A stretch of DNA of 31,232 nt, taken from positions 1-31,232 of the forward strand of contig NW_021832336.1 in the NCBI RefSeq assembly GCF_006345805.1. Reading direction: 5' to 3'. Under the pieces are notes generated by a model. That model did not search any database and had not been told where the DNA came from. It saw nothing but the letters and a program-made list of their open reading frames with translations. Source of the DNA: Octopus sinensis. Lineage: Eukaryota. A program made the position numbers and the translations under genes. How positions within the stretch are numbered: position 1 is the first letter of the stretch; each line of letters opens with the position of its first letter. Positions 6,310 to 31,232 of the stretch are shown in pieces.

Positions 6310-9300
6310 TAAAAATAATTAAATAATCCAGACAATTAATATTACGTATCTTATCCTTAGTATTGGCCTTGGGAACAAGCAAACAAGAAAAAAACTCATT
6401 CAAAAAAGTTTTTCTTTGAAGAGTGAAGTGTATTCGTTAGGAGCTCCAAACGAAACCCTTGTAAAATTAAAAATAAAATTGAAAAAAATATTTTAATATT
6501 AAATAATTTTTAAAGAAATTCAGGAAATAAATTATTAATTGAAGGATAGATAAAATGATATTCTTTGAGATTTTGTTGATGAACGTAGCGAACATAATCT
6601 TCAAGGCACATCCTTTAACGTCAATAGACACGAAAACCTGGTCAAACCACGAACATGTTCCATATTCGAATTAATTTGCACAAAATTTAAATAATCTTCA
6701 GCATTCATCATCGATATCTATTGTTTACAAATATAATTATTACTTTATAGGGAGTATTCATTTCTTCTGGACCAAATGTAATCAGATAAGAAATTATTTT
6801 AGCATTTTCAACATCAATGCCATCAAAATCCACTTTAATTACTGTTTCCTCGACGATTTGATTTGTAATCAAACTTAATAACTCTAAAAATACAAATAAA
6901 ACCGAAAAAGATTGAATTCCTTCATTTTTGAACACGTGTTGATACTGAAATTCAAAATGAGCGAGTTTAAGATCAATTCTAATCGAGAAAAATCTATTTG
7001 AATTTTTTGCAATCCGAAAGATTGGATAGGACGAGAACACATGGTTATTTTCCAATAAACAAGTCTACTAAGGAGGAAATAAAAAATTCAAGTCTAAAAT
7101 AAAAAATATAATTTATACTGTTTGCTTATAATTTGCCCACATTTATACATTGAAAGTGTTCCTGAAATAGTTTCTTCAAAATAGTCCTCTAGTTGATTTA
7201 TAAAACCTGATTTCTGAACGACGGGATCAATTTTTCCATTAAAACTAAAAAACAGTTCAGAACAAGTCAAAAACCTCGAATAATTAGACAATTTCATTCC
7301 CATAAATATAATTCTTACTTTACTGGCAAAAATTGACATTAAAATACTTATCTCCTCTTCAACGTGTAAATACAGTGTCTAAATAATAAATATTATAATA
7401 CTTTATTAGCGGCTAGTATAATCGAGATAACCTCACTCGAAATATCATCTTTAAAACTTTCAATAGTCTAAAGATAAAATAATCCGAATTAAAATCTGAC
7501 CTTATTTATAAGACAGTATAAATCATAAACAAAGTTTAGAGTGGCTATATGTAGATTCTGTAATTTAGAAGACCGAGGCGAAGAAACATCACCAATCATA
7601 TCAATACACTTTAAAATAAATTAATATATAAACATATTTATCCATTTTAGAACGAATGAAATTAATATTTTTGGATATTACGTTTTCTGCAATGAGCTTA
7701 GACAACCTGGTCGACCCCAAATACTCATTTTTGCAATCTCTTATTTGTCTATATTTAATTTATTTTATAAATATAAAATCAGCAAAAAAGCAAAAATTAC
7801 TTTTTTAATTCCCCAAAAATGCTGTTGATATCATCAGTAGTATAACATGAACCAAAACGTTTGTCAATAAACGTAGTATTTATAAGATTATTCAATTTTT
7901 TAAATTTTCTTGATAAATATGACCCCTCTACTAATTTGAAAACACCAAAGACCGGTTCTTCCAACCTATAATGTTTTAAATATACAGAAAATACATCGAT
8001 AATAAAAACGACTCCTTAAATTCATTTTCTTTAATAACTAATGAAAAACCAATTTCTTTTGTCGATTTCATTTTTGCCAAATTATTACAATTCATATGAA
8101 TCAAAGTTTTTTCAACAAACTCAAATATGCATTTATGGATCATTGCATATTGTTTCTCAATGTAATCCTTTAAAAGTGGATCTTTTAAAATATTTAATAA
8201 AAAACGACCTTTAAAAGCCTTTTTTAAGATCAGAGACAAATCTACGCACAGTTTTTGTACAACTTTAAACTTGAGACTCAGATCATAAGATTGCAGGACC
8301 TCAACAGCCTGACAAATATTTTACGTAACATGAAACTTGAAAATATGTCAAGGAATCACCTGAAATGCTCTCAAAGTATAAAATTAAGCATTTCTCAAGT
8401 AAATCAGCCTAAAATATATTTTATTGACACAAAACAATTTTCCAGACAGTCAAAGCTTCTTTGAATATTTTTTCAAATTCAATTAAACAATTATTCCGAT
8501 TTACTTTACTATTAAAACAAATTAAAAACCTTTTTCTGGATTTTCAACCAAAAATGTTGTATTAGTTGAAAACTTTGTGAATAAATCTTGTATAAAAGAA
8601 GGCAAAACATGCCCCAGTTTGACCATCAGTGTTTTTATTCCGAAAAGAACCAAAGATTGGTCCTTTTTAATAGAAACTTAACTCAAACCTCTTTCAAAAC
8701 CCCATTTGTAATGATATCAAGGGCACTTTGTATTATAAACTCGCGGGTATCAGATAAGTGTTGTTTTAGTTCAGAAACTAATAATATATTCTCCAATTTT
8801 ATATCCTCCAAAAGCACATCTAAATCATTTTTCAATCAAAAAAACACAACCTGTTTTTGACAATTCGGAAACTGCGGATAAAAGAGAGGATGAATCTCCT
8901 GAACGAAATTGTGCGATGAACCCATCAATGATCACAATATTTGTAACCAGTGCATTAATTCTGCGTAAAATAGAGCAATATTCCTAAAATTTTTTAAATA
9001 GTACAACATGTGCTCGGGAAAGAACGAGGTTTGAATGGCTCAAAAGTCCATATAGATCATTACTTCTTTGGTAAGAACTAAAATGTCAGAATATAATAAC
9101 TGAAAAAACGAAGATTTTAAAGTTTCGGAGCAATTTTTTAATGTTATCAACTCGTCTAAAAATATTTTTATATTTATTACCTTCAATGTTTTCAAGTTTT
9201 AGTGCGTGTGCTATTAATTCTGATTCGTTGTTTTGTATCTTTAATTTTATGACGGATTATTTACTTCTTTGTGAATTTCCTTGTCGATTATATTTATTGT

Positions 9301-12874: not shown

Positions 12875-15510
12875 TTAATAAATAATAAGCGTCCCTGGAA
12901 TGTATTCTCCAATTAAATATTCCTCAATAAACAACGAAAAGGCTTCCTTTACAGCCAAAATCGACTTCTTATCAGATGTTTTAGTTATGACACACAGCCG
13001 ATGTTCAGTTAAACTATCCGGCAACATTTTATTGATCTAAAATAAAAAATCACAAAATACTTCTGCCGAAGCTTTAAATGGCACAGAATCACATTTCCGA
13101 AACAAAAACACACAATCAAACGGATTTCTCTCAATTCCATAACCAAACGAAGAAATCTAAATTAATCTAAGCAGTCAATCAAAACATGGAAAGTCAACAA
13201 ATCTGATTGATAAAGCCCACGCACGTGGTCAAAGTCATGAAACAAATCCCTGGAAATAAAATCAGCAAATTTAGATCTAAATTCAACCAGAAAATAATTG
13301 CAAAATAAATTTACTTTCGAGGATCGGCAAATTTCTACACTCGCCACAATTTTGTAGAGTTCTCTTTTTGTAATCTACTCAGAATAGCACGTGCCCGTTT
13401 GTAAGGAGGTGGTTCTTGGATTGACTGTTCATTTGGGTATAATGATTGGGCATATTGGAGAAAGTAAGGGGAGAATATTTCGTCAGTCATGGCTGATAGG
13501 GCGGCCATGTCGTCAAAGCACTCCAATATTGGTCGATATAAACTTTAAATGTTAGTTTAAAAAGAACCCATCGCAACAACGAAATTTGTAAATTTGACAT
13601 ATTTCAGTAAAAACATCAAAAAACCTAAAAAATTAATATTATTAAATTAAATAATATTTCCTAAATATATTTTTTAAATATTAAAAATAGAAAAAACATT
13701 TGACTGATTGCTGTAACAGCAGGATGTTGGTACACAACTCGATGCATCAAAATCCTGTGATTAAAAACAGTAGCAATATCCACAAGTGACTAAAAATATC
13801 TCAAAACACCCCACTTTATCCCTAAAACAAATCATCATCATATTCTTCTCAGGAACAATCAATACACGTGCAGTAATAATCAGTCTTAGTGGGTTCACAT
13901 TGAAAGGTAAATTAAGATGGAATGTATCACGTGCCAAATAATCCAATTTATCAACATCAATTCCGTTATTTTGGTCAGCGACAATCTTAATTAATCAATG
14001 GCATTTACCTGGTAGAGAAATTGCTTATTGGCTCTGATTTTTAAACTTTGGGAAGAGAAAGGGCATATTAGGAGTTTTATGAACTCAATGTCCTCAGAGA
14101 CCAGCCCGTGTGTTAGTAATACTTGGCCAAGATTATTTTGTGAGATTAAATATTCGAACATTTTTATAGAATTATTTTCATGCTAATTTGATTATTTTCT
14201 TATTATATATATTAATATGTCGCGACCCACGCTGGCGACCATACCACGCTGGCGACCAGAGCGACCTTCATTGTTGACAAGATTGACAGGTGGAATTTAT
14301 TCACCACTTCTTCAATTAAATTTCAAGTCTTACCAGAAGCAGTTTTATTTTTTAAAGATTTGCAGACAACAAATTTGCTGTAGATGTCAATAATTGTCAG
14401 TATCCAATTAGATCCATCGTTAAAATCTTTATATCTTCTAACAACAATAAGATCCGCCTGGAATCTTTCATTGGGTTTTCCTGCAGTTACATGGTAATTA
14501 GAATCCGACACCTAGGTATTTTTTTTAAATACTTTCAATGGTAGGGCAAATTTACAAATTTCGCAGTCTTTTATAATTTGTTCGATGATTGGACGTTTTA
14601 CAGTGAAATAGAATTCACTGCACTTTTTCTGAAGCTTTCGTATTCCCCATTGGGATTCTTGGTTAATGGCGAATGCTAGTGTCCTCATCTCCATTTCATT
14701 GTCCAGACAAATGACCATTTGTGTTTTGGTTATTCTCGTCCTTTAGATAAAGACTATGAGTTAGGAGTCGCAAATATACCGATCATTAATAATGATTAAT
14801 TGAGTCGCTTTTTTCATGCTAACATCTTTTGAGAGAAACCATATTTTTTTTGTAAAATGACGCTAAACCATTTCTTAAAATGAATTTTTTCCGGTTTGAA
14901 TCACCTGTCAAACTGAAGGTCATAACCTGTCAAACTGATGGTCGCCAGCGTGGGATGGTCGCCAGCGTGGGATGGTCGCCAGCGTGGGTCGCGACATAAT
15001 AAATAATGTATTTTTAAATTAAAAAATACATTGAATTTTTTCCTGTTGAGGTCATGAAACGTTCAAAGCAATGACTGTGGGGTCCGTGGCCTATATTAGC
15101 CATAAAAATAACCCAAATCATGGCATAACCCAGCAATCTCTATACAGGTGACATCTGAGGGAGTAATATTCAGTTCAGGTTGTACATCCCGGAGATGTCG
15201 AATGAACTGTCCTGCCAAATAGCACACTCTTGACATAAATTAAAGGCAATCCCAACCCGATGCTGTGCTCGAATCTAGTGTGAGTGGCCGAGGGGAATAC
15301 CAAGTGGCTGGGACCTAGTTGTTTAAGCCAGCGAAGTCTTTGAACTCTGGTGTGTCCATTATGGCTACACATAGTGGGGAAAGCTCAATATGTCCATAAA
15401 TGCAGTCTTGGAATACCTATTCTTTTTAATTTATTTCTTTTTATTCGTTTTGATATAATTTTAATTAATAACAAAAAGCAAAATTAATAAAGACAGACTT
15501 TATTGTACAT
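12875..15510 (-). CDS. SAMHD1: dNTP triphosphohydrolase SAMHD1 homolog (HD domain only, no SAM domain)
   Basis: MYNK|[54 protein letters not shown]|VCYLAG...IAGLCHDLG|HGPHSH...|HENNSIKMF...[20 protein letters not shown]...[12 protein letters not shown]...RNPFDCVF...|[16 protein letters not shown]...*. The H..HD..D metal ligands are intact. One intron carries the 14218-14996 transposon. Confidence 0.93.
14218..14996 (-). mobile_element. Internally deleted Ginger2/TDD-like integrase DNA transposon inside a SAMHD1 intron
   Basis: Termini TGTCGCGACCCACGCTGGCGACCA...TGGTCGCCAGCGTGGGTCGCGACA; exact 5-bp TSD TAATA (14213-14217 and 14997-15001). Internal spliced integrase N-terminus ...KDCEICK..PLK|[40 protein letters not shown]|EVVNKF, cut off before the second catalytic Asp. 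Confidence 0.88.
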
Positions 15511-15589: not shown

Positions 15590-15860
15590 ATAAAGAAAAC
15601 ACATTCGACGACAGTCCCAACAGAAAAAAACGATTTAGGCTAAAGCAGCTTGCGAAAAACATATGTTTTGAAAATGGAAATGTATTCTTTATTAAGAATT
15701 CAACCAAATTGCGATTTTTCGCAGAGGATGACATTGAGTTGAAGCTTAAATGCATTGCCAGGTAAATATTAATTCTATAATGTTAGGCTAAGAAATTAAT
15801 GGCGACTAAGCCACAACTAAGCCAGGAGAAGATAGAAATATGATGAAGATTCCATAAAAG
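15590..15860 (+). mobile_element. Degraded fragment of another Ginger-like integrase gene (N-terminal part)
   Basis: RKKRFRLKQLAKNICFENGNVFFIK...DDIELKLKCIAR parallels KRFRFLKKTRNFVNSGGVLYYK of the 25180-26809 element. It is followed by a 25-nt GT-AG segment and a PGEDR..MKI stretch. No TIRs found. Confidence 0.45.
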
Positions 15861-15890
15861 TCGGAGTTCTCGATAATCAATAAAAACCGA

Positions 15891-15985
15891 TTAACCGATT
15901 TATTTACAATTTTAAATCATTATTTTTTAATGGTTAACCAAAAATCAAATAGAGTTCTCGATAATCAATAAAAATTGTTGATGTC
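15891..15985 (+). repeat. 95-bp dispersed repeat, copy 1 (copy 2 at 23302-23396); likely MITE internal sequence
   Basis: TTAACCGATTTATTTACAATTTTAAATCATTATTTTTT...AGAGTTCTCGATAATCAATAAAAATTGTTGATGTC is nearly identical to 23302-23396. It abuts the 5'-truncated LINE. Confidence 0.9.
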
Positions 15986-17185
15986 TCCCGAGGAAAGTCT
16001 ATTCTCGAGTAATTGAACAACCTTGTAATCCTGAACAACCCCTCACTGCACACAAGAACTCCATACAACACCAAGGACAAGCCTACTTCCCCCGATCTGA
16101 CCCTTTGTTCTTCAACCTCGCACCTCTGGTCAAATGGGGCGTTACCTACGATCTACGGAGCGATCACAATCCGTTAATTATAAAAGTCCAAGTCAAATCG
16201 CCCATTAGAAAGGGGTTCCGCAACCTGAAATACGACTACAAGCACGCAGATTGGGTCAATTTTGCCAATTCCATTGACAAAGCACTGGTTAACTTTGATG
16301 TACATGATTTCGACTCGGTCGACAACGCCTTCAAGCACTTCAACCGAACAATTTTGATTGGAAGAAAATCATTCTTAAGAATGAGGAAAATTTATCCAAA
16401 ACCAGTAAGAAAATTTCCGTCGGGGATTCTACCTCTAATCGAGGAACGGAACTCATTGAAAGGTCGCTCTCATTTTACAAAAGATAACCGGCATCGGATC
16501 AGACTACTGAATAAAGTCATAGAACAATCTGCAAAAGACAAACGGTACGGGAAGGCCGAAAAGTTCGCCAGAGGATTAAATGCGGAGGTCCCACTAACAA
16601 AAGTATGGGCATCCCTAAGAAGAATCACAAACCCTGAGAGATTTAAATCGGGTGAGGATAATGCGGTTCATTTCACCAACAAACTGATAAAGTTCTACGC
16701 TGGGATCAGCAACATCCCCCACAGGAAATATGATGGACCATGCTTGAAGTCGTTGTAACCTCGAAGATGTCGGGACATGATTATTCTCACTCAAGAGGAG
16801 GTGTCTCAGACCATCAGAAATTTAAGAAGCACTGGCTCTTGTGGACCTGACGGAATTCCTACTATTCTGGTGACAAACCTAGGACAGGTGGCAATATCAG
16901 CTCTTTGTCAAATTTACAACTTTTCTATAAACAACAACGCAATACCCACACTATGGAAAATGGCACACATTCGCCTTATTCTGAAACCAGGGAGACCAAA
17001 AGACAACCCGGCGTCCTACAGGCCAATATCTCTCCTCTGCGTCCTTTCCAAAGTTCTGGAAAAACTTATACTCAACCACATCAAACAATATCTCCCGGAT
17101 TTGGACTTTCAACATGGATTTAAATGTGGTAAATCAACTACCTCGCACCTTGTCACTTTGACGAACTTCATCTCAGATGGAGCAA
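15986..17185 (+). mobile_element. APE-RT LINE ORF2 fragment (end of endonuclease to RT domain ~2-3), truncated both sides
   Basis: SPDLTL...DLRSDHNPLII (APE SDH motif), then GPDGIP, WKMAHIRLILKPG, SYRPISLLCVLSKVLEKLI, QHGFKCGKSTT. No introns. Confidence 0.93.
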
Positions 17186-17232
17186 AGCACGGTCTTTTGG
17201 TGCCTCGGTTAGCTTGCAAAACCGATATTGCG

Positions 17233-17900
17233 ATTATTATTATTAAAACCAAGATCACCGTCCAAAACATAGAACTAATTAATCAGGTGATCCCGGCTTC
17301 TCTGAGGAGGGTCCTCATCTTTGCCCGGTGCCTCTCCCTAGTCCCGACACAATTTCTATGAGGGCATGGTGGTGGAGTTTTAGGACCTGTAGGCCCATGG
17401 TTCCGTCCCAAGATTTATTTAAATAAGGCGATCGATAGATTTTCATTTGGTCCTTGTAGTGCTTTCCAAAATCTTTCTTGAGTTTTTTCGATTTTGCACG
17501 GTTTGTTTCACTGACAAACCCACTCCACGCCCCACAAGCATAAGTAATGGAGGGTTCGATGTATTGCCGGTAGATTGATTGGCGTGTGGGGAAGCTGATT
17601 CATTGTTTGCATTTTCGGAGGAACACTTTTAAGATGTTCAGTTTTTTCATGCAGCTAGTTGTAACATATTCAACTTGATGGTAGAAACACATATGACTAT
17701 CGTAAGTCACGCCGAGGATTTTCTGGGATTTTTTTAAGAGGATTTCCGTGTTGTTTAGACTTTTTCAACTTTAAGTGAATTTCACTAAGGTATATTTTCC
17801 TGGAAACGGGGTCAAAAGCCTTATGGATATACACTGAGCACATAACCGTAATGCGATCACTAATAAAGCTTCAATTTAGTCAGGTAATTAATCGGGTCCC
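17233..17900 (-). mobile_element. Second LINE copy (RT C-terminal half with internal deletion, 3' UTR and (TAA)n tail), tail-to-tail with the previous one
   Basis: Minus strand FISDRITVMCSVYIHKAFDPVS (~DISKAFD), KILGVTYDSH, IYRQYIEPSITYACGAW, then a 3' end like that at 409-475 and a TAATAATAATAAT tail. Confidence 0.82.
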
Positions 17901-19942: not shown

Positions 19943-22225
19943 CAATGATTCTCAACTCACCTTTTTTTGGTGTCCCAAAAAAAAAGTCAATGTACCAAAC
20001 CAAGTTATTTCGTGTACCAAAAAAACAAAAACTTATTTATTTCTTTTAATTAAATTTAGAGACTTAAAGTATTTTTCTAACTATTTAATGAGAGCCTTGG
20101 TTTTCATGCATTTTAATTAATTTCTGAATATCAGGGTCCAAACGTGTTAAAATTAATCTCTCGAACAGATATCAAGCTTGTTACGTTTATATCGCTCAAT
20201 ATTCTGTTTATTACGCTGAATCCTGATTCCACAAGATATGTTGTTGAAAACATAATAAAATTTTTTATTTGTTCCCAAATCTTTGGAAATTTGTCTTTAA
20301 ATTCCTTTTTTCGCCAAAAGGTAGACAAATCCTGGCTTTCAAACAAAATCTTGTAAGAATAATTATATTTAATTTCTATAAAAAATAATATGATAAAAAA
20401 TACCAATAAATTCATCTTGCAAATCCATTTGCACCTCTTCAGTGCTAGTAAAAAAAGGATTTATCATCCATTTTGGTATTTTCATATTAATCACGTCTTC
20501 AAATCTGATTGTCATTTCCTTTTCCAAATTAATTAGATGGTCAACAAAAATTTTTATATCAAATTGATTAAATGCTTCACATACTGGATATAGAAAATCT
20601 TATTTGCCTGATTCAAAGTTATGTCTAATTCTTTAACTTTTCACAGAATGTAATTGTAACTCTGACGTCAAACATAGTTACAAAATCTCTCTGCAATTTC
20701 AAGGAAATTTCATTCAATTTAGCAAAAATCCAATTTAAATAATAGATAGTATTAAACTGAAATAAGTGACAAATAGTTATTAACTAACTAAATTCCCGGC
20801 CTCGTAAATGGAAACGTACTATAGCCAAGGAATAGATATATTTTTCATTTTCGAAAATCGATCTTGCTAATTCATCTTCATTTTCCGATTCAAGAAATGG
20901 TAAAAGGTTTACAAATCTTTGTAAAGCAGTGCCTTTGGACAACCAGCGAACCTATAGACTATAAAAAACAAAAATAAACTTCAGTATGATACAAGAGTCT
21001 TAAATAATCTTCATTCCTATCTATACAAAATTTCCTAAAGATCATATCAGATTTTGGACTTGTTTTAATTCGATTGATCGTTTTTATGACAAGATCCAGA
21101 ACTTGATTTAAAAAAGCGAAAATTTTTTTTCGAAACAAGATGATGCCGGTGTAATACGCAATGAATATGAATTAAATTCGGACATTTTTGTTTCAAAAAA
21201 GACGCAAATCCTTTGTACTTCCCAACCATGGCCATTGCACCGTCCGTAGCACATGCAATTAAATTGGAAAATGGAATTTGTTTTTCTTCAAAATAGGTTT
21301 TCAATACATTAAAAATTGACTCTCCGGTAGATTCTGTTATCAAAGGTCTGATAAACAAAATCTCTTCACAAAAAACTACGTGTTCGTTAAAAAATCTTAA
21401 CAAAATATTATTTAAAGTACCTACCTAACATAGGCCATTAATATAGATTTATTATCACATACCAGACATTCGTCAATCTGCAACGAAAAAACAGTTTTTC
21501 TAAGTATATTTTTTAAGGAATCTTCGACGCTTTCAGCCATTTCGTCAATTCGGCGACGAATCGTATCATTACTCAAAGGTAAATTCTAGCCACATCAAAA
21601 TGGTCGCACTACTTTTAAAATTTCAGATGGATTATGTCCCAACATATCTTGTAAAACAACTGCGAGAGAAGGTATTATTAACGATTCACCCGAAACATGG
21701 GTAGCATTATTTTTAGCAACAATATGGGCAATTTTGTAGGATGCAAGTAACCCATCTATGAAATAGCTTAAAGGAATACTTTTTCGCGCAAGAGCATGAT
21801 GAGTGATTAACTTTTGAAGAGTGGTAGGTTCATCAATCTTGTTTTTTATATTTTGAAAATATTCAAGCTAAGATCCGACTAGATTTGGATGTCTAGTCCT
21901 CAAATGGTGTTTAATCTTGATAATTCATTGAACTATTGGCCAAAGAAATTTAGCAGATTATGCAAAAAGGCCTAGATTTATCTCCACTGGAAAGGATAAA
22001 TCCATATTTCAGATATTCTTTACGATAAATCCGAGGCGTACATGAATTACCACCAGGCATGTGATTGACACGAGTATTTATAGGTATCGAATGATAATGG
22101 TTAACCATCGTAATGTACTAATTACTGATAATAAAAAAATATTTTAAAAAATAATACCATGTACCAATTCGAGTATTTTCCATGTACCAAAAATGGTGCA
22201 CATGCACCACGGTTGAGAATCACTG
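19943..22225 (-). mobile_element. Near full-length hAT (Buster/ZBED5-type) transposon with intron-containing transposase
   Basis: TIRs CA(A/G)TGATTCTCAAC at both ends. Spliced protein EYLKYGF..RPFCIIC..KHHLRTRH, EILK|NLPLSNDTIRRRIDEM, FSLQIDE, AYVR|FFNE, IACATDGAMAMVG, HCVLHRHHL, YHTE|VRWLSKG, FSTTYLVESGFS. Confidence 0.9.
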
Positions 22226-22394
22226 GCATAGATTATGCAATTTGATACATCAAAATTGCCCTGAATTTTATAACCCAATTATTGCTGTTTTGGGAGAATA
22301 TGACTTAGCATGTTACTACATAACAAAGATAAAAGAATAATATTAATATTTAACAAATAATTCAATAAACAATTTATTTGATGAGTGATTTAGA

Positions 22395-23060
22395 GCTGGC
22401 TTCACTAAACTGCGCTTGTCACCCGCATACCGGAGGCTGGCTCGAAGCACTCCCTATCCCAGCACTGGATTACTATTAGACAATTAATCCTTACGGATCG
22501 GTATCTGTTTACGCTTGAGCTTGGACATCTGCTGGCGCCACCTCTCCCGGTGCGGGTTCACAATTTCTTCGATTGGCTTGTACGCCTTGTCGTGTAGCTA
22601 CTCAACTCAATGACGTTTTCAGGAGGGCTCTAGAGTCGATTTGTTTTCTTTCTACTCTAGAAACAGTCGGCCTTTTTTATGGCGACGGTAATGGTTGATT
22701 TCGTCTGTCAAGATCGGAACTCACTGGAAAATTGATTAAAACAAATCCCACATTGGCTGAAGTACAGGTCTCTGGAAGTAAACCCAGACAACACGGAAAG
22801 AACTACCATATTTCGCCTCGCGACGAGAAATTAAGAAAAATGCAAGAAAGTTGGATCTATCCTTGGGGATTTGGAGGAGGTTATTCAAAGGAAAGTGCTG
22901 TTGTCTTTTTTAAAAAAATTGAATGAGCCACACTTGCATATGAACGCGCCTTCGAATTCGACTGTACAACTCATTTGTCGAGCCAATTCTGCTCTACAAC
23001 GCGGGGACCAAGGGTCTAACCGCCAAAGAACCAGAACACCTCAATTCTTTCCATAGAAAA
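22395..23060 (+). mobile_element. CRE/SLACS-like non-LTR retrotransposon, 3' fragment (Zn-finger plus restriction-like endonuclease region), degraded
   Basis: GGWLEALPIPALG...LRIGICLRLSLDIC..H..RCG, NDVFRRAL, ET.GL..GDG, FLKKL and SALQRGDQGS follow the CRE-clade C-terminal pattern WLxAxPxxxLG..RLG..C..H.C.CG...QRGNA (recalled consensus). Confidence 0.7.
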
Positions 23061-23184
23061 CAATTAATACTATTCTTAGGTATTCGCTGGCTGAAAAAGA
23101 TGAGCAACGAAGAACTCTACAAAAATTGACTAACGATTTTGTTTAAAATTTTCATCTAATTTTTTTAAGAATTGGAAGCTCGCA

Positions 23185-24469: not shown

Positions 24470-27400
24470 ATGGACACTTTTTCGAACAAAAAATACAAAA
24501 AGTACCTTAAATGCATAAAAAACACCAAAATTCCTTCAAAAATCAAGCTTTGTTATTTAAAACGTCTTGAACTATATTCCAGAGATTCTAACTCGAAAAA
24601 ATCCTTCCTAATCAATCAAGGTCCCGATTTATTTCTCCAATTCCTTTCCAACTCGTCAGACGATCAAAACATTTACGTTCTGGAACTTTAAAAGCATTCA
24701 AAATATTTTCCCAATCCTACCAAATGTACTTTTTTATAATATTTTTATAGAATTTTCTTGTACAGTTAATTTCAAAATAGGTAATTTATATACATAAATA
24801 TTACTTTTAGCTCAATTTATAACCGAATGGAATGGCGAGGAAAACTTGATTTTGTTGATAAAATTTATATCGGTTTTTATAAAATCTACAAAAAATAAAT
24901 TTATTTTTTACCCAAATAACTTCTTGTTTTAATTTTATACTCAAATTATGCATCTCAGTTGATTCTTCCTCTAATTTACTCAGGCACTCCCTATCGGTCT
25001 TAAGGTAAAATTATTAAAATAAACATCAAATAGTAAATTAATTAAATTTAAAAAACTTGCTCGTCATATTATAGAAACTTGTCCTGATTTAACACCTTTG
25101 TTTGTCCGTAGTGATTCAATTAAGATTAGATTGGTCAAAATTATTAATGAACTTATTAAAAGGTAATAAAAATAATGATTGTCGCGCGCAATGGATGAAA
25201 CGCGTGCCTAAAGTGAAACGCTGTGAACCTTGAGAAAACCACAAAAAACCTCGAAAATAAAATTAACAATCCTTTGATGAAAACAGGAATAAAACCGAGA
25301 AATCAATTTTTTATTATTATCGTTTGAAAGATTAACAATTTATTTAAATAATGGTTAGCCATTTTAAAATTACCAAAAAATTAAAAATATTTTAACCTGA
25401 AAATTTACCTGTCTAAATTTTTTTAACTTGTGATTTAAATACTATTTTTTCATTTCCATCTTGATCTTTTATTTTAACTCTATTATTTGAAATTAAATCT
25501 TCAACAGTAAAGATTTGTTGATAATAAAAAGATTCTAATTTTCGCTTCTTCGTCCTTTGATTTGTATCAAAATCTTTTTTCAGCAAAACATTATTTCCAA
25601 TTGCAATTTCTTTCAATGTTTTTGAAAAATTTCGTTCCATTCTTTCAAGATATTTGTCATTTATGATAGTTTGATTTTCATGTTCTTCAATTAATTCATC
25701 ATCATTATAATAAGAAATGTTATATCCTCTTATTCGGAAAAAAGCCATAAATGGTGACATATTTATAGAAGAATGAATTGAAATATTGTACTGATATACA
25801 ATTTTTTCTAACACATCCACCCATTTTTTCTGTTTGTCTGTGAGTTCTTTTTGAATCCATCTGCAAATGGTTTGATTGCAACGCTCCACTTGTCCCTGTG
25901 ATTCTGGATGTCTTGGACGTCCCCTTTTATGAATTATTTTAAATTCTTCACATAATGACGTTATTTCTGAATTAACAAATTCTGTTCCGTTGTCAGACTG
26001 CAGAATTTTTGGTGGACCATAGGAAAGAAATATAGTTTTCAATGATTCCGAAACTGTAACTGCTTCTTTATTTTCTATTTTTTAGCAAAGCAAAATTTTG
26101 AATAAATATCTATGACATTCATAAGATATTTATAGGAATCATTTATATCTGCATAAAACGAAAGATCGACTAAATCAACTTGATAGCTAAAAATAAGCTA
26201 TTGAATGAACCGTTCTCGAGGTTCTTTGGCTACTATGTTGACTAGTGGATATTTTGTCTTTAAGGGCTGACTTCGCTGACATTTGTGGCATGATGATATT
26301 ACATCCCTAATTATGTTTCGATTGATTATGCAAAAATTATTTTTGCAATACTCTTCCATTTTATTAAATCCATAGTGATAAATTGAATGAATCCTTTCAC
26401 AATGCAGTTTCATGGATTCGAAATCATTTGAGGCAATTACCAATATTTTGTTTCCATCAAATTGTTTATAATATAGCACACCTATCATTAGATTTAATAG
26501 TACCTCCAGAATTTACGAAATTTCTAGTTTTTTTGAGAAAACGAAATCTTTTTAGTCTTGAAAATTTTCTGGTATAAATCTTCAACAGTAAAGATTGTAT
26601 TATTTATTAAAAAATCAAGAATATTCTTATACTCCTGATCATCCTTTACAATGTTGGCAAATCTCATTTCGATAATATTATCTCAAAGTGCGCAATCATC
26701 TTTAATATCTTTAATATTGACTTGATAATTGTCAAGAGCTTAATTGAAGGTTAAATTCAAGGTCACAGCGTTTCACTTTAGGCACGCGTTTCATTTATGG
26801 CGCGTGACAATGATAAATATAGATATTATGGTTTAAATTGGGAACATAATGATTATGGCTCTGATTGCCGTGGAGTGACACAAAGTTGAACAGATTTCCT
26901 GACTGATGGGGTCGTTGGGAGTATTTATAATGCCCTTCAAGAGTCTGAAAATGTTTTTTTAGTTAGAATATGTTTTATGTTTTTTCTTTTGCTTGCATTT
27001 AAAGGAGAATATAGTTGTAATCTATTTAGATCACTAATACTATTGATTTGTGTTTTTTTGATGAGAAGGATGACGTTCCTTCCATTAATTGTGTCAATTT
27101 TATTTATAATTTTTACGATCAATTGATTGGTTATATTTTAAAAATATATTGGGGCACTTCTATGAGTATTTGTAGTTGTTGGTCGGCTCTTGTCTATCTT
27201 TTTGAGGCCCACGATAAAAAAATTTTACCAAAGTTTCATTTTGTTGTATTACTCTCGAGATTTTATGATAAAAATGCTGACTCTAAAGTTTTTTTGACTC
27301 AAGAATTTGTAAATAAATTAATTTTAATTTTCAGCGAGTCTTTTGAGTTCCCCGATGATATGAAATGCTCATTTTCTTATATATATCCTTCTAATAAACC

Positions 27401-28390
27401 AAAATCGTCACTTTTTGTTTGTCCGAAAAAAATCGAAGGCTGTTTATGTTGTTTTGCAATTCGTTATGATCACGATCAAGTTCCAATAGCTATCAGAGTG
27501 CTCAATATACTAAAGAAAATTGTTATTTCGAATCCGCCTTGCCTTCCATTTGGACTTTGTAATTTTTTTCTAAATTTGTTTCTCTGTTGTGCCGAACGTT
27601 CGGAGTTTTCTGACATTTTTACAGCCCAATATTTTTACCAGTTCACTAATTTGTGCATCATTTATCGACATGTTATGAAATCTTTTCGAATTAACGTTTC
27701 TGGAATCGAACATTTTCATTATTCACCAAGAAAGAGTACTCTGGCATTTCAAAATCCAATTATTCACATGAAATTAATCTATGGAGATATTGTCACTAGT
27801 CGTCTACAAATTCAAAAAAGTCATATTATGTTTGGAAATTGTCGCTACAGTTGTCACGTGGATGATCCAATAGAATTAGAATCTGAGAATGGAACTGTAA
27901 CGTGCTCTCTTAGTGATTTATCCAAAATAAGTTTATTTTTCCAAAGATTGTTTAATTCTGGAATGCAAGAAATGCAATTTAGGAAGTGCTATTTGGCAGA
28001 AGAGCATCAAGTGATTGTGGCTTTGGCTCATATTTCAACTGGATGTTTATCGTCCAATGTTTTTTGGGAGGAATGGAGAGTATTGATCGCTTAAGATTGT
28101 ATAAAGTGTTTGTGGCTGCTGATAAATATTGCTTAAATAATGATATAGTAAGTCAATTGGGACAATTTATTTTTGAAAATATCGAAAATGATCTCGAAAA
28201 TTTGGTTGAATTGGTTGGACTTTCTTTTTCATCTCCTCGCTTTTTGGAATCAATTTGCGTTTTTGTTTTGACTTCGAGCGCTCTTGTTTCCATGTCGTTT
28301 GAACGCTTGATTGCAAAATATGGGTTTGCAACACAATTTTATGAATTTTTATCTTCTTTTATTATTCAAAACTTTGGTGATTCAAATTGA
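24470..28390 (+). CDS. ARMC5: Armadillo-repeat plus C-terminal BTB protein, ARMC5-like; one intron holds the 25180-26809 transposon
   Basis: MDTFSNKK...FLINQGPDLFLQFL; mini-introns near 24726, 24781 and 25007; open exon KLIKFKKLARHIIE...KIINELIKR up to GT at 25163, resuming after AG at 26822. Long exon 27048-28390 with BTB-like ELESENGTVTCSLSDLSKISLFFQRLFNSGMQE...LAHISTGC and VFVAADKYCL. The ARMC5 orthology is inferred from architecture. Confidence 0.6.
25180..26809 (-). mobile_element. Near full-length Ginger2/TDD-like integrase DNA transposon (1630 bp)
   Basis: About 50-bp imperfect TIRs TGTC(G/A)CGCGC....ATGAAACGCGTGCCTAAAGTGAAACGCTGTGA; exact 5-bp TSD ATGAT (25175-25179 and 26810-26814). 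No RT or gag. Confidence 0.92.
25413..26667 (-). CDS. Retroviral-like DDE integrase/transposase (H2C2 Zn finger, rve core, C-terminal domain) with two mini-introns
   Basis: MRFANIV...KRFRFLKKTRNFVNSG|GVLYYK...HCERIHSIYH...SCHKCQ...EPRER|YQVDLVD...IDIYSKF...PKILQSDNGTEF...HPESQGQVERCNQTI...YNISIHSSINMSPF. Introns at 26482-26503 (22 nt) and 26187-26210 (24 nt). Residual frameshifts lie near homopolymer runs (~26080, ~26550). Confidence 0.88.
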
Positions 28391-28878: not shown

Positions 28879-31232
28879 CAGGGCTGGCCAACCCAAGGCC
28901 CGCGGGCCGCATGCGGCCCGCGATGGAGTTTGGTGCGGCCCGCGAGAGAAATTTTGTATGTAGTTAACCTATAAATACATTCAAGATAAATTTTTCTTAA
29001 GTTTAATAAATAAAGATAAATTTTATAAGTTTAATAAATTTTAAAGTTTATCTATTTTTGTAACTGTTATCAATATGAAGAAAAGGAAAATTTTTGAAGA
29101 AAACAGGCAATTCAGCAATCATTGGGAAAAAGATTACTTTTTTATAATGCATAATTCCAAGCCAACATGTTTAATTTGCAAGGAGAAAGTATCGGTGGTG
29201 AAAGAGTACAATGTAAGAAGACATTATGAAACAAAGCATTCCGAATACGCGAAATTTAGTAAGGAATTGAAAACAAGGAAACTGGATTCGCTTAAATCTG
29301 AATTGAGAAATCAGCAAAGACTATTAAATTCATCGATACACTCTTCTTCTGATACTGTTAAAGCAAGCTACTCTGTTGCAATGATAATTTCAAAGAGAAT
29401 GAAATCATTTTCGGATGGAGAATTCGTAAAAGAGTGTTTGAATGCTGTCGTGAAAGACATTTTGCCAGATAAAACTAAAAAGTTTTCAAACATCAGCTTG
29501 TCACGTCAAACCATATGTCGCAGGGTTAATGACATTTCAAATGAAATTGTGGTGACTTTGTGTGATCAAATAAAATATTTCAAAAGTTATTTTTTGGCCT
29601 TTGACGAATGCACGGATATATCAGACACGTCTCAACTTGTAGCTCGTCAAAAAAAATTGCTCAGCCATTTTTTCATGCTTTTATTGACAAATTAATAAAA
29701 AATTTAATCTTACACTTCATTTTTTATTCTAATTCTTAAGTATATTAATTTATTTATGCGATTTTATTTCAATATAAGGAATTTAAAGCATAAAAATTTA
29801 AATCTCGTGACAAAAAACATTGCTCACTTTTCTTGTTATTGCATATGCCACGTTCTCCCAAGAAACAGTTAACTGAATTAAAAAGGGATGATTATTGCGT
29901 ACTTTAAAGAGGGTAAATCAATCAGAGAAATCTCAAAAATACTTAATTTGCCGTATTCCACAATTTCATTTAATATTCGAAAATTTCGAGAATTTGGAAC
30001 ACTGCATTGGAGACCGGGCTCAGGACGTCTTCCGAAACCAAGTTCCCCCCAAATACAATTTTTATCTAATGAAACCGAATCACATCCTACATTGTTGGCA
30101 GTGGATTTGTCCAACAAAACTAAAGAAACTTTCAATATTGATGTTCCCCTAGGACAATTCTGAGAACTTTGAATAAAAATGGGGTATATTGTCGTGTAGC
30201 AAAAAGAAAGCCATTGCTTTCTCAAAAAATATTATTTCGAGATGGTCTGCGTCACTACGATTTTTATCGATATCTGATAGTACATGGAAATCGGTGATAT
30301 TCTCAGATGAGTCAATGTTCGATGTTTTTAACAACAGAAAACATCAGGTTGTTTACAGAAAAAATAAAACGGAGTTAAAAAATGCACATTTGCTGCCGAC
30401 TGTTAAGTTCGGAGTAGGGAGAGTTATGATTTGGGGCTGCATATCGTATAGTGGTGTAGGCAATTTGGTTTTTATCGAAGAAACTATGAACTCTGGATAT
30501 TATATAAATTTACTGTCTAATAATCTGGACCAATCAGCTGAAAAAATGGGCTTATCCTCGTTTATTTTTCAACAGGATAATGCTCCATGCCATACATCTC
30601 GTATGGTTAAGGCATATTTCGAAACCAAAAAATATATTATTCTTGATTGGCCATCGCAATCACCGGATCTTAACCCAATAGAGCATGTATGGTGCTTTAT
30701 GAAAAGAGAATTAGCTAAAAATCCCCCGAAAAGTAAAGAGGATCTAAAGACAAATATTATGAAAATTTGGCAGTCAATTCCTAAAAGTTTTTTACAAAAC
30801 TTAGTAAATTCAATGAGAAAAAGGAGTTATTCTTTATATTTAGCAAGGGGAGGACATATTAATTACTGATAATGAGATTCCAAATTTGTGCTAATGTTTT
30901 TTGTCTTGCAATTTGTTGTTTTGTTTAAGTTTGTAAATAAAAAAGAAAAATTGTATTATAAAAATTAAGGTATAATAATAAAATACTACTTAAAGATGTT
31001 TACAAAAAAAATAAATCAGAATAATGCTATATAAAGACATAAACATTGGTGAGCAATTTTTTTTGACGACCACTGTATATTCGTGGAGTTACCGAATCTT
31101 TTCAAGTGAAACAAGAAATGCTTAACCTTGTCAGTTTGAAAGATACTACAAAGGGCGAAGATATTTTCCAAGCTGTTATGAATTGTTTATCCGACAATGA
31201 AGCGAATTTAGAGACCCTTGCTGGATTGACAA
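28879..31232 (+). mobile_element. hAT transposon (GTF2IRD2/EPM2AIP1-like), interrupted by Tc1, running off the window end
   Basis: Left end CAGGGCTGGCCAACCCAAGGCCCGCGGGCCGCATGCGGCCCGCG after TTTTAAAG. ORF 29075: MKKRKIFEENRQF..WEKDYFF..CLICKE..YNVRRHYETKH...LAFDECTDISDTSQL; it resumes after the Tc1 at 31078 as IRGVTESFQVKQEMLNLVSLKDTTKGEDIF. Confidence 0.93.
29642..31075 (+). mobile_element. Tc1-family transposon (DD34E), full length, inserted at TA in the hAT transposase
   Basis: Right end TGAGCAATTTTTTTTGACGACCACTG|TA; left end TA|GCTCGTCAAAAAAAATTGCTCA (terminal CAGT missing). Transposase ~29845-30869 with HTH, GRLPK, FSDES, FQQDNAPCH and WPSQSPDLNPIEH; 34 residues between the second D and E. 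Confidence 0.95.

Follow-up and report, generated by a model that had tools for sequence, protein, structure and literature searches.

The closest described relatives of the element studied here are the Ginger2/Tdd transposons, which, as characterized by Bao, Kapitonov and Jurka (2010, PMC2836005), have 5'-TGTNR termini, TIRs of ~50-180 bp (45-297 in the table), an integrase with H2C2 and DDE motifs and an AT-rich target, are described there with neither RT nor RNase H, and have autonomous sizes of 2.7-6.7 kb. The metazoan Ginger2 elements in that account make 4-bp target-site duplications (TSDs) and TDD-4/5 make 5-bp ones, while PMC10045372 gives the TSD of Ginger2/Tdd as 4 or 5 bp; KRBA2 is traced to a Ginger2 ancestor by PMC3575427. 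Ginger1 shares with our element an integrase-type transposase, TGT ends and transposase-gene introns (predicted in our element), and differs in its 4-bp CCGG/CCGT targets, its YPYY and GPY/F motifs and its OTU/Ulp1 tails. In ciliates, IESs are lost from all somatic copies and reside in essential genes present once in the genome. The introns described for Dicyema and for myxobolids are ultra-short, at 22-30 nt, with signals amounting to a bare GTa..AG (PMC13644364, PMC6736024, PMC6543705), and how such introns are recognised needs study according to PMC13644364.

The window, that is, the whole 31,232-nt stretch analysed (contig NW_021832336.1 of the 2.72-Gb Octopus sinensis assembly), carries a five-exon, putative ARM-BTB (ARMC5-like) gene at 24470..28390 on the plus strand, whose intron 4 holds a Ginger2/Tdd-like TIR DNA transposon of 1,630 nt (25180..26809, minus strand; family A), a non-functional copy. 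The TIRs are 47 nt each and match at 43 of 47 positions, the left one (25180..25226, plus strand) beginning TGTCG and the other lying at 26763..26809 on the minus strand; the ends of the element read TGTCG on one side and TGTCA on the other (a TGTC..GACA element). A 5-bp TSD, ATGAT, flanks the element at 25175..25179 and 26810..26814 (both plus strand) and is single in empty copies. Excising the element with one ATGAT leaves GTAATAAAAATAATGATAAATATAG, a 25-nt GT-AG intron across which the exons join as K-R|Y-Y-G. The earlier note had placed a 1.63-kb transposon exactly within a 25-nt intron inflated ~65-fold, and coordinates, TIRs, ATGAT, restored intron and exon join were all confirmed: host intron 4 (25163..26822, plus strand) measures 25 nt empty and 1,660 nt filled, 66-fold (1,660/25).

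The 25-nt intron is real and not a chance reading, because the site is empty in 4/4 other assembly copies of the gene, one of these copies has an open frame, and one read-set contig is spliced there. The empty-site letters are identical in L032 and L033, differ by one substitution in L034 and lack 2 nt in L035, a copy rich in indels; removing introns of 26, 30, 29 and 25 nt from L034 gives a single open frame of 727 aa. In the window, introns 1-3 lie at 24726-24750, 24781-24810 and 25005-25033 (plus strand). In run X3, one contig joins 25162 to 26823, leaving out 25163-26822 at GT..AG, and shows 85 gap letters across the three upstream introns; it is taken as spliced from the contig alone, the run record naming no RNA, and run X4 had no useful coverage of the gene. 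The ARM-BTB label of the earlier note is backed by ESM-Atlas features of the host protein (BTB and ARM/ARMC5 clusters at 0.90-0.94) and not by Pfam or sequence search, both of which were blank; for the last exon, Pfam was likewise blank and a homologue search gave 0 matches among 6,275 candidates.

The transposase of the element runs antisense to the host gene, in a frame with the H2C2 zinc-finger part (26198..26512) and a frame with the integrase core and C-terminus (25413..26081; second D in SDNG, E in QGQVER), both on the minus strand; a 1-nt deletion near 26084 separates the core frame from the upstream part. Pfam matched rve (3e-9) and Integrase_H2C2 (2e-5), the accessions being PF17921, PF09337 and PF00665. 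The D-D-E residues align with those of 420-aa homologues at 38-42% identity, the best named homologue is a KRBA2-like protein (P0012; 39%, E 1e-19), and the frame stops ~115 aa past the catalytic E. Within the transposase gene, a predicted 24-nt GT-AG intron (26187..26210, minus strand) contains an in-frame stop and is kept in 11/11 near-full family A copies; its removal gives PRERYQVDLVD, as homologues have. The transposase gene thus seems to carry an intron of its own that matches the host intron size. A patch private to the window's element (26565..26596), 22 nt of which are identical to 25494-25515, is a templated repair that breaks the 5' part of the transposase. At least 10 further near-full family A copies were found at 97-98% (best 40 of 91 scored candidates), and 12 of the 16 copies having both ends show identical 5-bp duplications. 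In 9 of 11 copies only 0-9 sites in 1.6 kb deviate from the column majority, so the substitution noise of the contigs appears low. The element in intron 4, with ~3 private point changes over 1.6 kb, is young.

By its features and its KRBA2-like homologue the element fits Ginger2/Tdd, the label given in the earlier note, with which termini, TIRs, 5-bp TSD, AT-rich target and H2C2 plus DDE core all agree. Its termini, TGTCG and TGTCA, conform to TGTNR, its TIRs lie at the low end of the published range, and the AT preference of the target is present in a motif unlike the RTATAY of Nematostella. No GPY/F, YPYY, RT/RNase H or LTR was seen in the element from its translations and an alignment read by eye (1.6 kb leaves no room), no Pfam match to an OTU or Ulp1 C-terminal domain was found in it, and the 4-bp CCGG/CCGT duplication of Ginger1 is absent, the target being AT-rich and 5 bp long (family A copies, 45 sites). 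The element departs from published Ginger2/Tdd descriptions (PMC2836005): its 5-bp TSD is like that of TDD-4/5 and unlike the 4-bp TSD of metazoan Ginger2, its length is just 1.6 kb, and its transposase has the predicted 24-nt intron.

The contigs carrying these elements are most likely those of a co-assembled dicyemid parasite. The earlier note had guessed at a dicyemid, and this is indirectly supported by a UAP56 exon beside another family A copy, on contig C6614 and not on the window contig, that is 94% identical to the Dicyema japonicum protein and 68-83% identical to the other 119 proteins listed, and by a separate UAP56 with kb-spaced exons on large scaffolds. Two whole Dicyema-like UAP56 genes (L127, C8740:44800-46300; L129, C8853:213300-214700) match the D. 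japonicum protein at 90% and 86% and are 81-83% alike in DNA, so that two dicyemid species may possibly be present in the assembly; if element families are common to both, transfer between co-infecting species would be conceivable. A further copy, L015, was considered as inflating a UAP56 intron and set aside: its 5-kb contig has only a rearranged 3' fragment of the gene, and whole genes lie elsewhere.

A segmental duplication of about 5-6-fold includes the window as one of its units. This 30-55-kb unit, with CENPJ-like, SAMHD1-like, ARM-BTB and other genes, occurs in about six copies at 96-98% with different transposons in each (window 1-28900; C12602:103000-220000; C10741; C6094). On C12602 three units stand in tandem at ~97%, their insertions differing from unit to unit. 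The first half of the window also has a counterpart at 97-98% on C10741, which ends before the ARM-BTB gene. Cyclin and other genes are likewise multi-copy. In the window, hAT-like (zf-C2H2_12) and Tc1-like (DDE_3) elements follow the ARM-BTB gene at 28880-31000, and LINE RT pieces and further hAT fragments lie at 15600-17900 and 19950-23100.

The empty ARM-BTB sequences differ from the window copy by 2.3-2.8%; letters private to the window copy include T25154, C27578 and A26889. At 26889 a G stands in the spliced X3 contig and likewise in those of X1 and X2 that have the empty site, and all of them agree with the empty copies at further letters (among 40 of 266 letter rows). The source sample is possibly X1, and two studies supplied the DNA contigs with an empty site. 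Because these contigs carry the letters of other copies, their empty sites are best read as those copies and not as excised forms of the window copy. Two checks proposed in the earlier note are answered in part. The RNA junction from 25162 to 26823 does occur, in the X3 contig, but with the letters of the empty copies and not those of the window copy; since empty copies give a positive join, this test cannot decide without copy-specific letters. Empty-site contigs do exist as well, but all belong to other copies of the gene.

That the allele might be broken was one option of the earlier note, and it is favored by a private stop and six private exonic deletions, some of them possibly read errors. 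A TGA at 26887..26889 (plus strand; W227*), in frame and 22 codons past the intron 4 join, results from a TGG>TGA change at 26889; 4/4 other copies and the contigs of runs X1, X2 and X3 have TGG. Neither this stop nor the upstream frameshifts had been picked up in the earlier note. Seven bases are deleted from the exons of the window copy and from no other, at 27035..27035 (plus strand) and near 24665, 24695, 24773, 24894 and 28055, and frameshifts lie upstream. Five of the six deletions sit in runs or short repeats, and some may be long-read errors. Indel columns number 12 in L035, which is as indel-rich as the window copy, and one each in L032 and L033; the rate in the window copy (9 events in 3.1 kb) is nonetheless above that of the CENPJ-like part of the window (3 in 4.8 kb). 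Of the private substitutions of the window copy, 15 are synonymous, 10 missense and one nonsense (439/1,742 sites), giving an omega of ~0.19 that points to purifying selection until recently and to no long decay. The letters particular to the window copy appear in no contig of runs X1-X4 among the matches listed, so the premature stop rests on one contig. Separately, L033 (C12602:142000-145000) is probably a second dead copy of the gene: its private changes are missense in 12 cases and synonymous in none, it carries a frameshift, and a base ahead of the donor site has changed.

The filled intron contains 53 AGs, the first 51 nt after a weak GTA donor; use of any of the six nearest AGs leads to a stop within 4-16 codons, retention brings an immediate stop, and the sense strand contains four AATAAA. 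Given the weak donor, the early AG and the stops that follow the near AGs, the intron would mostly be retained or mis-spliced, and disruption appears the simplest outcome for the window copy. A point against this is that annotated introns of D. japonicum (gene models; median 24, 90th percentile 32, SD 94.5) reach 2,855 nt with a long tail, so that 1,660 nt falls within the annotated range. The host introns share the 22-30 nt and the bare GTa..AG signals described for Dicyema and myxobolids; what sets intron 4 apart from those descriptions is that a transposon has inflated it, the gene copy being redundant, and nothing on transposons in ultra-short introns was found in the literature searched.

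The survey of insertion sites took in copies of family A and of two sister families, B and C. Of 90 loci, 45 distinct sites (A, 12; B, 24; C, 9) were complete at either end and flanked by identical duplications, the remaining loci being partial, unmatched or duplicates. Target positions -3..+7 (11 nt) are 86-98% A/T over these sites in all three families. The earlier note had proposed testing whether TGTC..GACA elements are enriched in introns, and the survey shows no such enrichment: 4 of the 45 sites were intron-like, against 4.1+-1.6 expected (30 draws of AT-matched nearby positions). Similarly, an open frame ran across 8 of the 45, against 8.3+-1.9 in AT-matched controls. The tiny-intron rule is a heuristic that missed one known case (L059), and a Markov coding score for sites was dropped, having failed to recognise two known intron cases. 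A fourth family, D, added 5 sites. Three insertions lie in host introns confirmed by paralogues, all of them query copies in the duplicated unit of the window, and a confirmed host intron was hit at 0 of 46 non-query sites. Introns occupy 1.14 of the 67.5 Mb of D. japonicum, so that about one hit would be expected by chance, and many from an intron-resident system. These 46 include three unconfirmed intron candidates and one site in a probable intron of another transposon. The majority of sites fall within other mobile elements or between genes. In a cyclin gene, a coding exon is interrupted by a family A copy and is empty in 5/5 other copies of that gene, and the in-gene insertions checked were all in multi-copy genes with 4-5 empty copies each. 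Two results run against an ordinary insertion guided by target preference: on the pooled target matrix the window site scores low, at -1.1 bits (77th percentile in its gene), and the Ginger-like insertions in the duplicated unit comprise three in introns vs. only one in a likely exon.

A deleted family B element of 779 nt (window 14218-14996, TSD TAATA) sits in a 64-nt AT-rich intron of the SAMHD1-like gene, so named from protein motifs, at a site empty in four other units. In another unit an independent insertion of family C, 2.24 kb with a 461-codon open integrase frame (L089, C12602:200511-202754), lies in the same intron ~5 nt from the family B site. This intron contains the best target site of its gene and 29% of the target weight, and the two independent insertions thus fit target preference. 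A family D element with TGTCACGG ends and a 5-bp TSD (L140, C12602:154880-155922), corresponding to window position ~8605, looks like an insertion into an exon of the minus-strand gene at window 6700-9300. Four other loci were examined as candidate host introns and none was confirmed: L019 adjoins a hAT-like end and L002 an RT fragment, L115 appears to lie in an intron belonging to a pogo-like element (all three labels from translations), and at L159 the stretch is unidentifiable. At L115:1178-2335, family C occupies a probable 31-40-nt intron of the pogo-like element, a stretch that is unfilled beside L019. Family B copies L083, L085, L086 and L081 (C10523:12400-25600) have inserted at corresponding points within an array of tandem repeats.

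We consider it probable that this locus records an ordinary insertion of a young Ginger2/Tdd-like element in one of several ARM-BTB gene copies, a redundant and most likely dead one that is tolerated because the others remain. An integrase-type transposase would have made a 5-nt staggered cut in the AT-rich intron, and repair would then have made the ATGAT duplication; the insertion would owe its persistence to the redundancy of the gene, or to segregating as a haplotype, and not to removal. A different and rather unlikely account is that the dicyemid spliceosome correctly removes the 1,660-nt intron, that the copy is or was expressed, and that the stop and the deletions either arose later or reflect errors of assembly. 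Pairing of the 47-nt TIRs could draw the two splice sites, both intact, close together, and the low omega on this branch, the annotated D. japonicum introns of up to 2,855 nt and the three independent intronic insertions in the duplicated unit all suit such splicing. Nonetheless the stop arises by substitution in contigs whose substitution noise looks low, the inflated intron has dozens of internal AGs, no non-query insertion lies in a confirmed host intron, and target weight explains both insertions in the SAMHD1-like intron. That the filled site is an assembly artefact from a chimeric long read is extremely improbable. The contig is small and indel-rich, and no contig of X1-X4 bridges the filled junction among the matches listed (29 of 254 pieces; contigs drop rare variants); yet the duplication of empty-site letters is perfect, both TIR ends are intact, and most both-ended family A copies look alike, and chimeras make no TSDs.

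The earlier note had further raised an IES-like system. On this reading Ginger-type elements would be germ-line sequences precisely removed with one TSD copy from somatic DNA, perhaps as circles; if so, filled germ-line copies would give clean somatic genes, and excised elements would be among the circles reported. Chromatin diminution and extrachromosomal circles are indeed reported for dicyemids by PMC6543705, citing Noto et al. 2003, the contigs look dicyemid, and empty-site DNA contigs came from two studies. The circles described in that source are, however, mostly 600-800 nt, largely unrelated to each other and tied by its authors to mitochondrial minicircles. Each empty site that was seen has the letters of a different gene copy (rare variants are collapsed in contigs), and the intact copy elsewhere that the earlier note had counted against its idea exists, since four copies are empty and L034 gives the 727-aa frame. 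The elements show no intron preference, and a TIR-TIR (GACA-TGTC) junction had 0 matches in the assembly and was not among the 5 joints listed for X1-X4, both being sources that keep circles poorly. Like ciliate IESs, the window elements are transposon-like inserts in genes with a short duplicated target; unlike them, they show no removal, and the genes struck are multi-copy. We therefore regard an intron-resident IES-like system as very unlikely here.

The preferred reading, a transposon in a spare gene copy, describes an ordinary event. At least four recently active Ginger2/Tdd-like families are present in a likely dicyemid; no description of these families in dicyemids was found in the open-access literature searched. 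Junction reads over the inflated intron may derive from an empty paralogue, a trap for any such test of splicing. With their private letters, the filled and empty copies offer a natural test of whether a spliceosome used to introns of 20-30 nt is able to splice out one of 1.7 kb.
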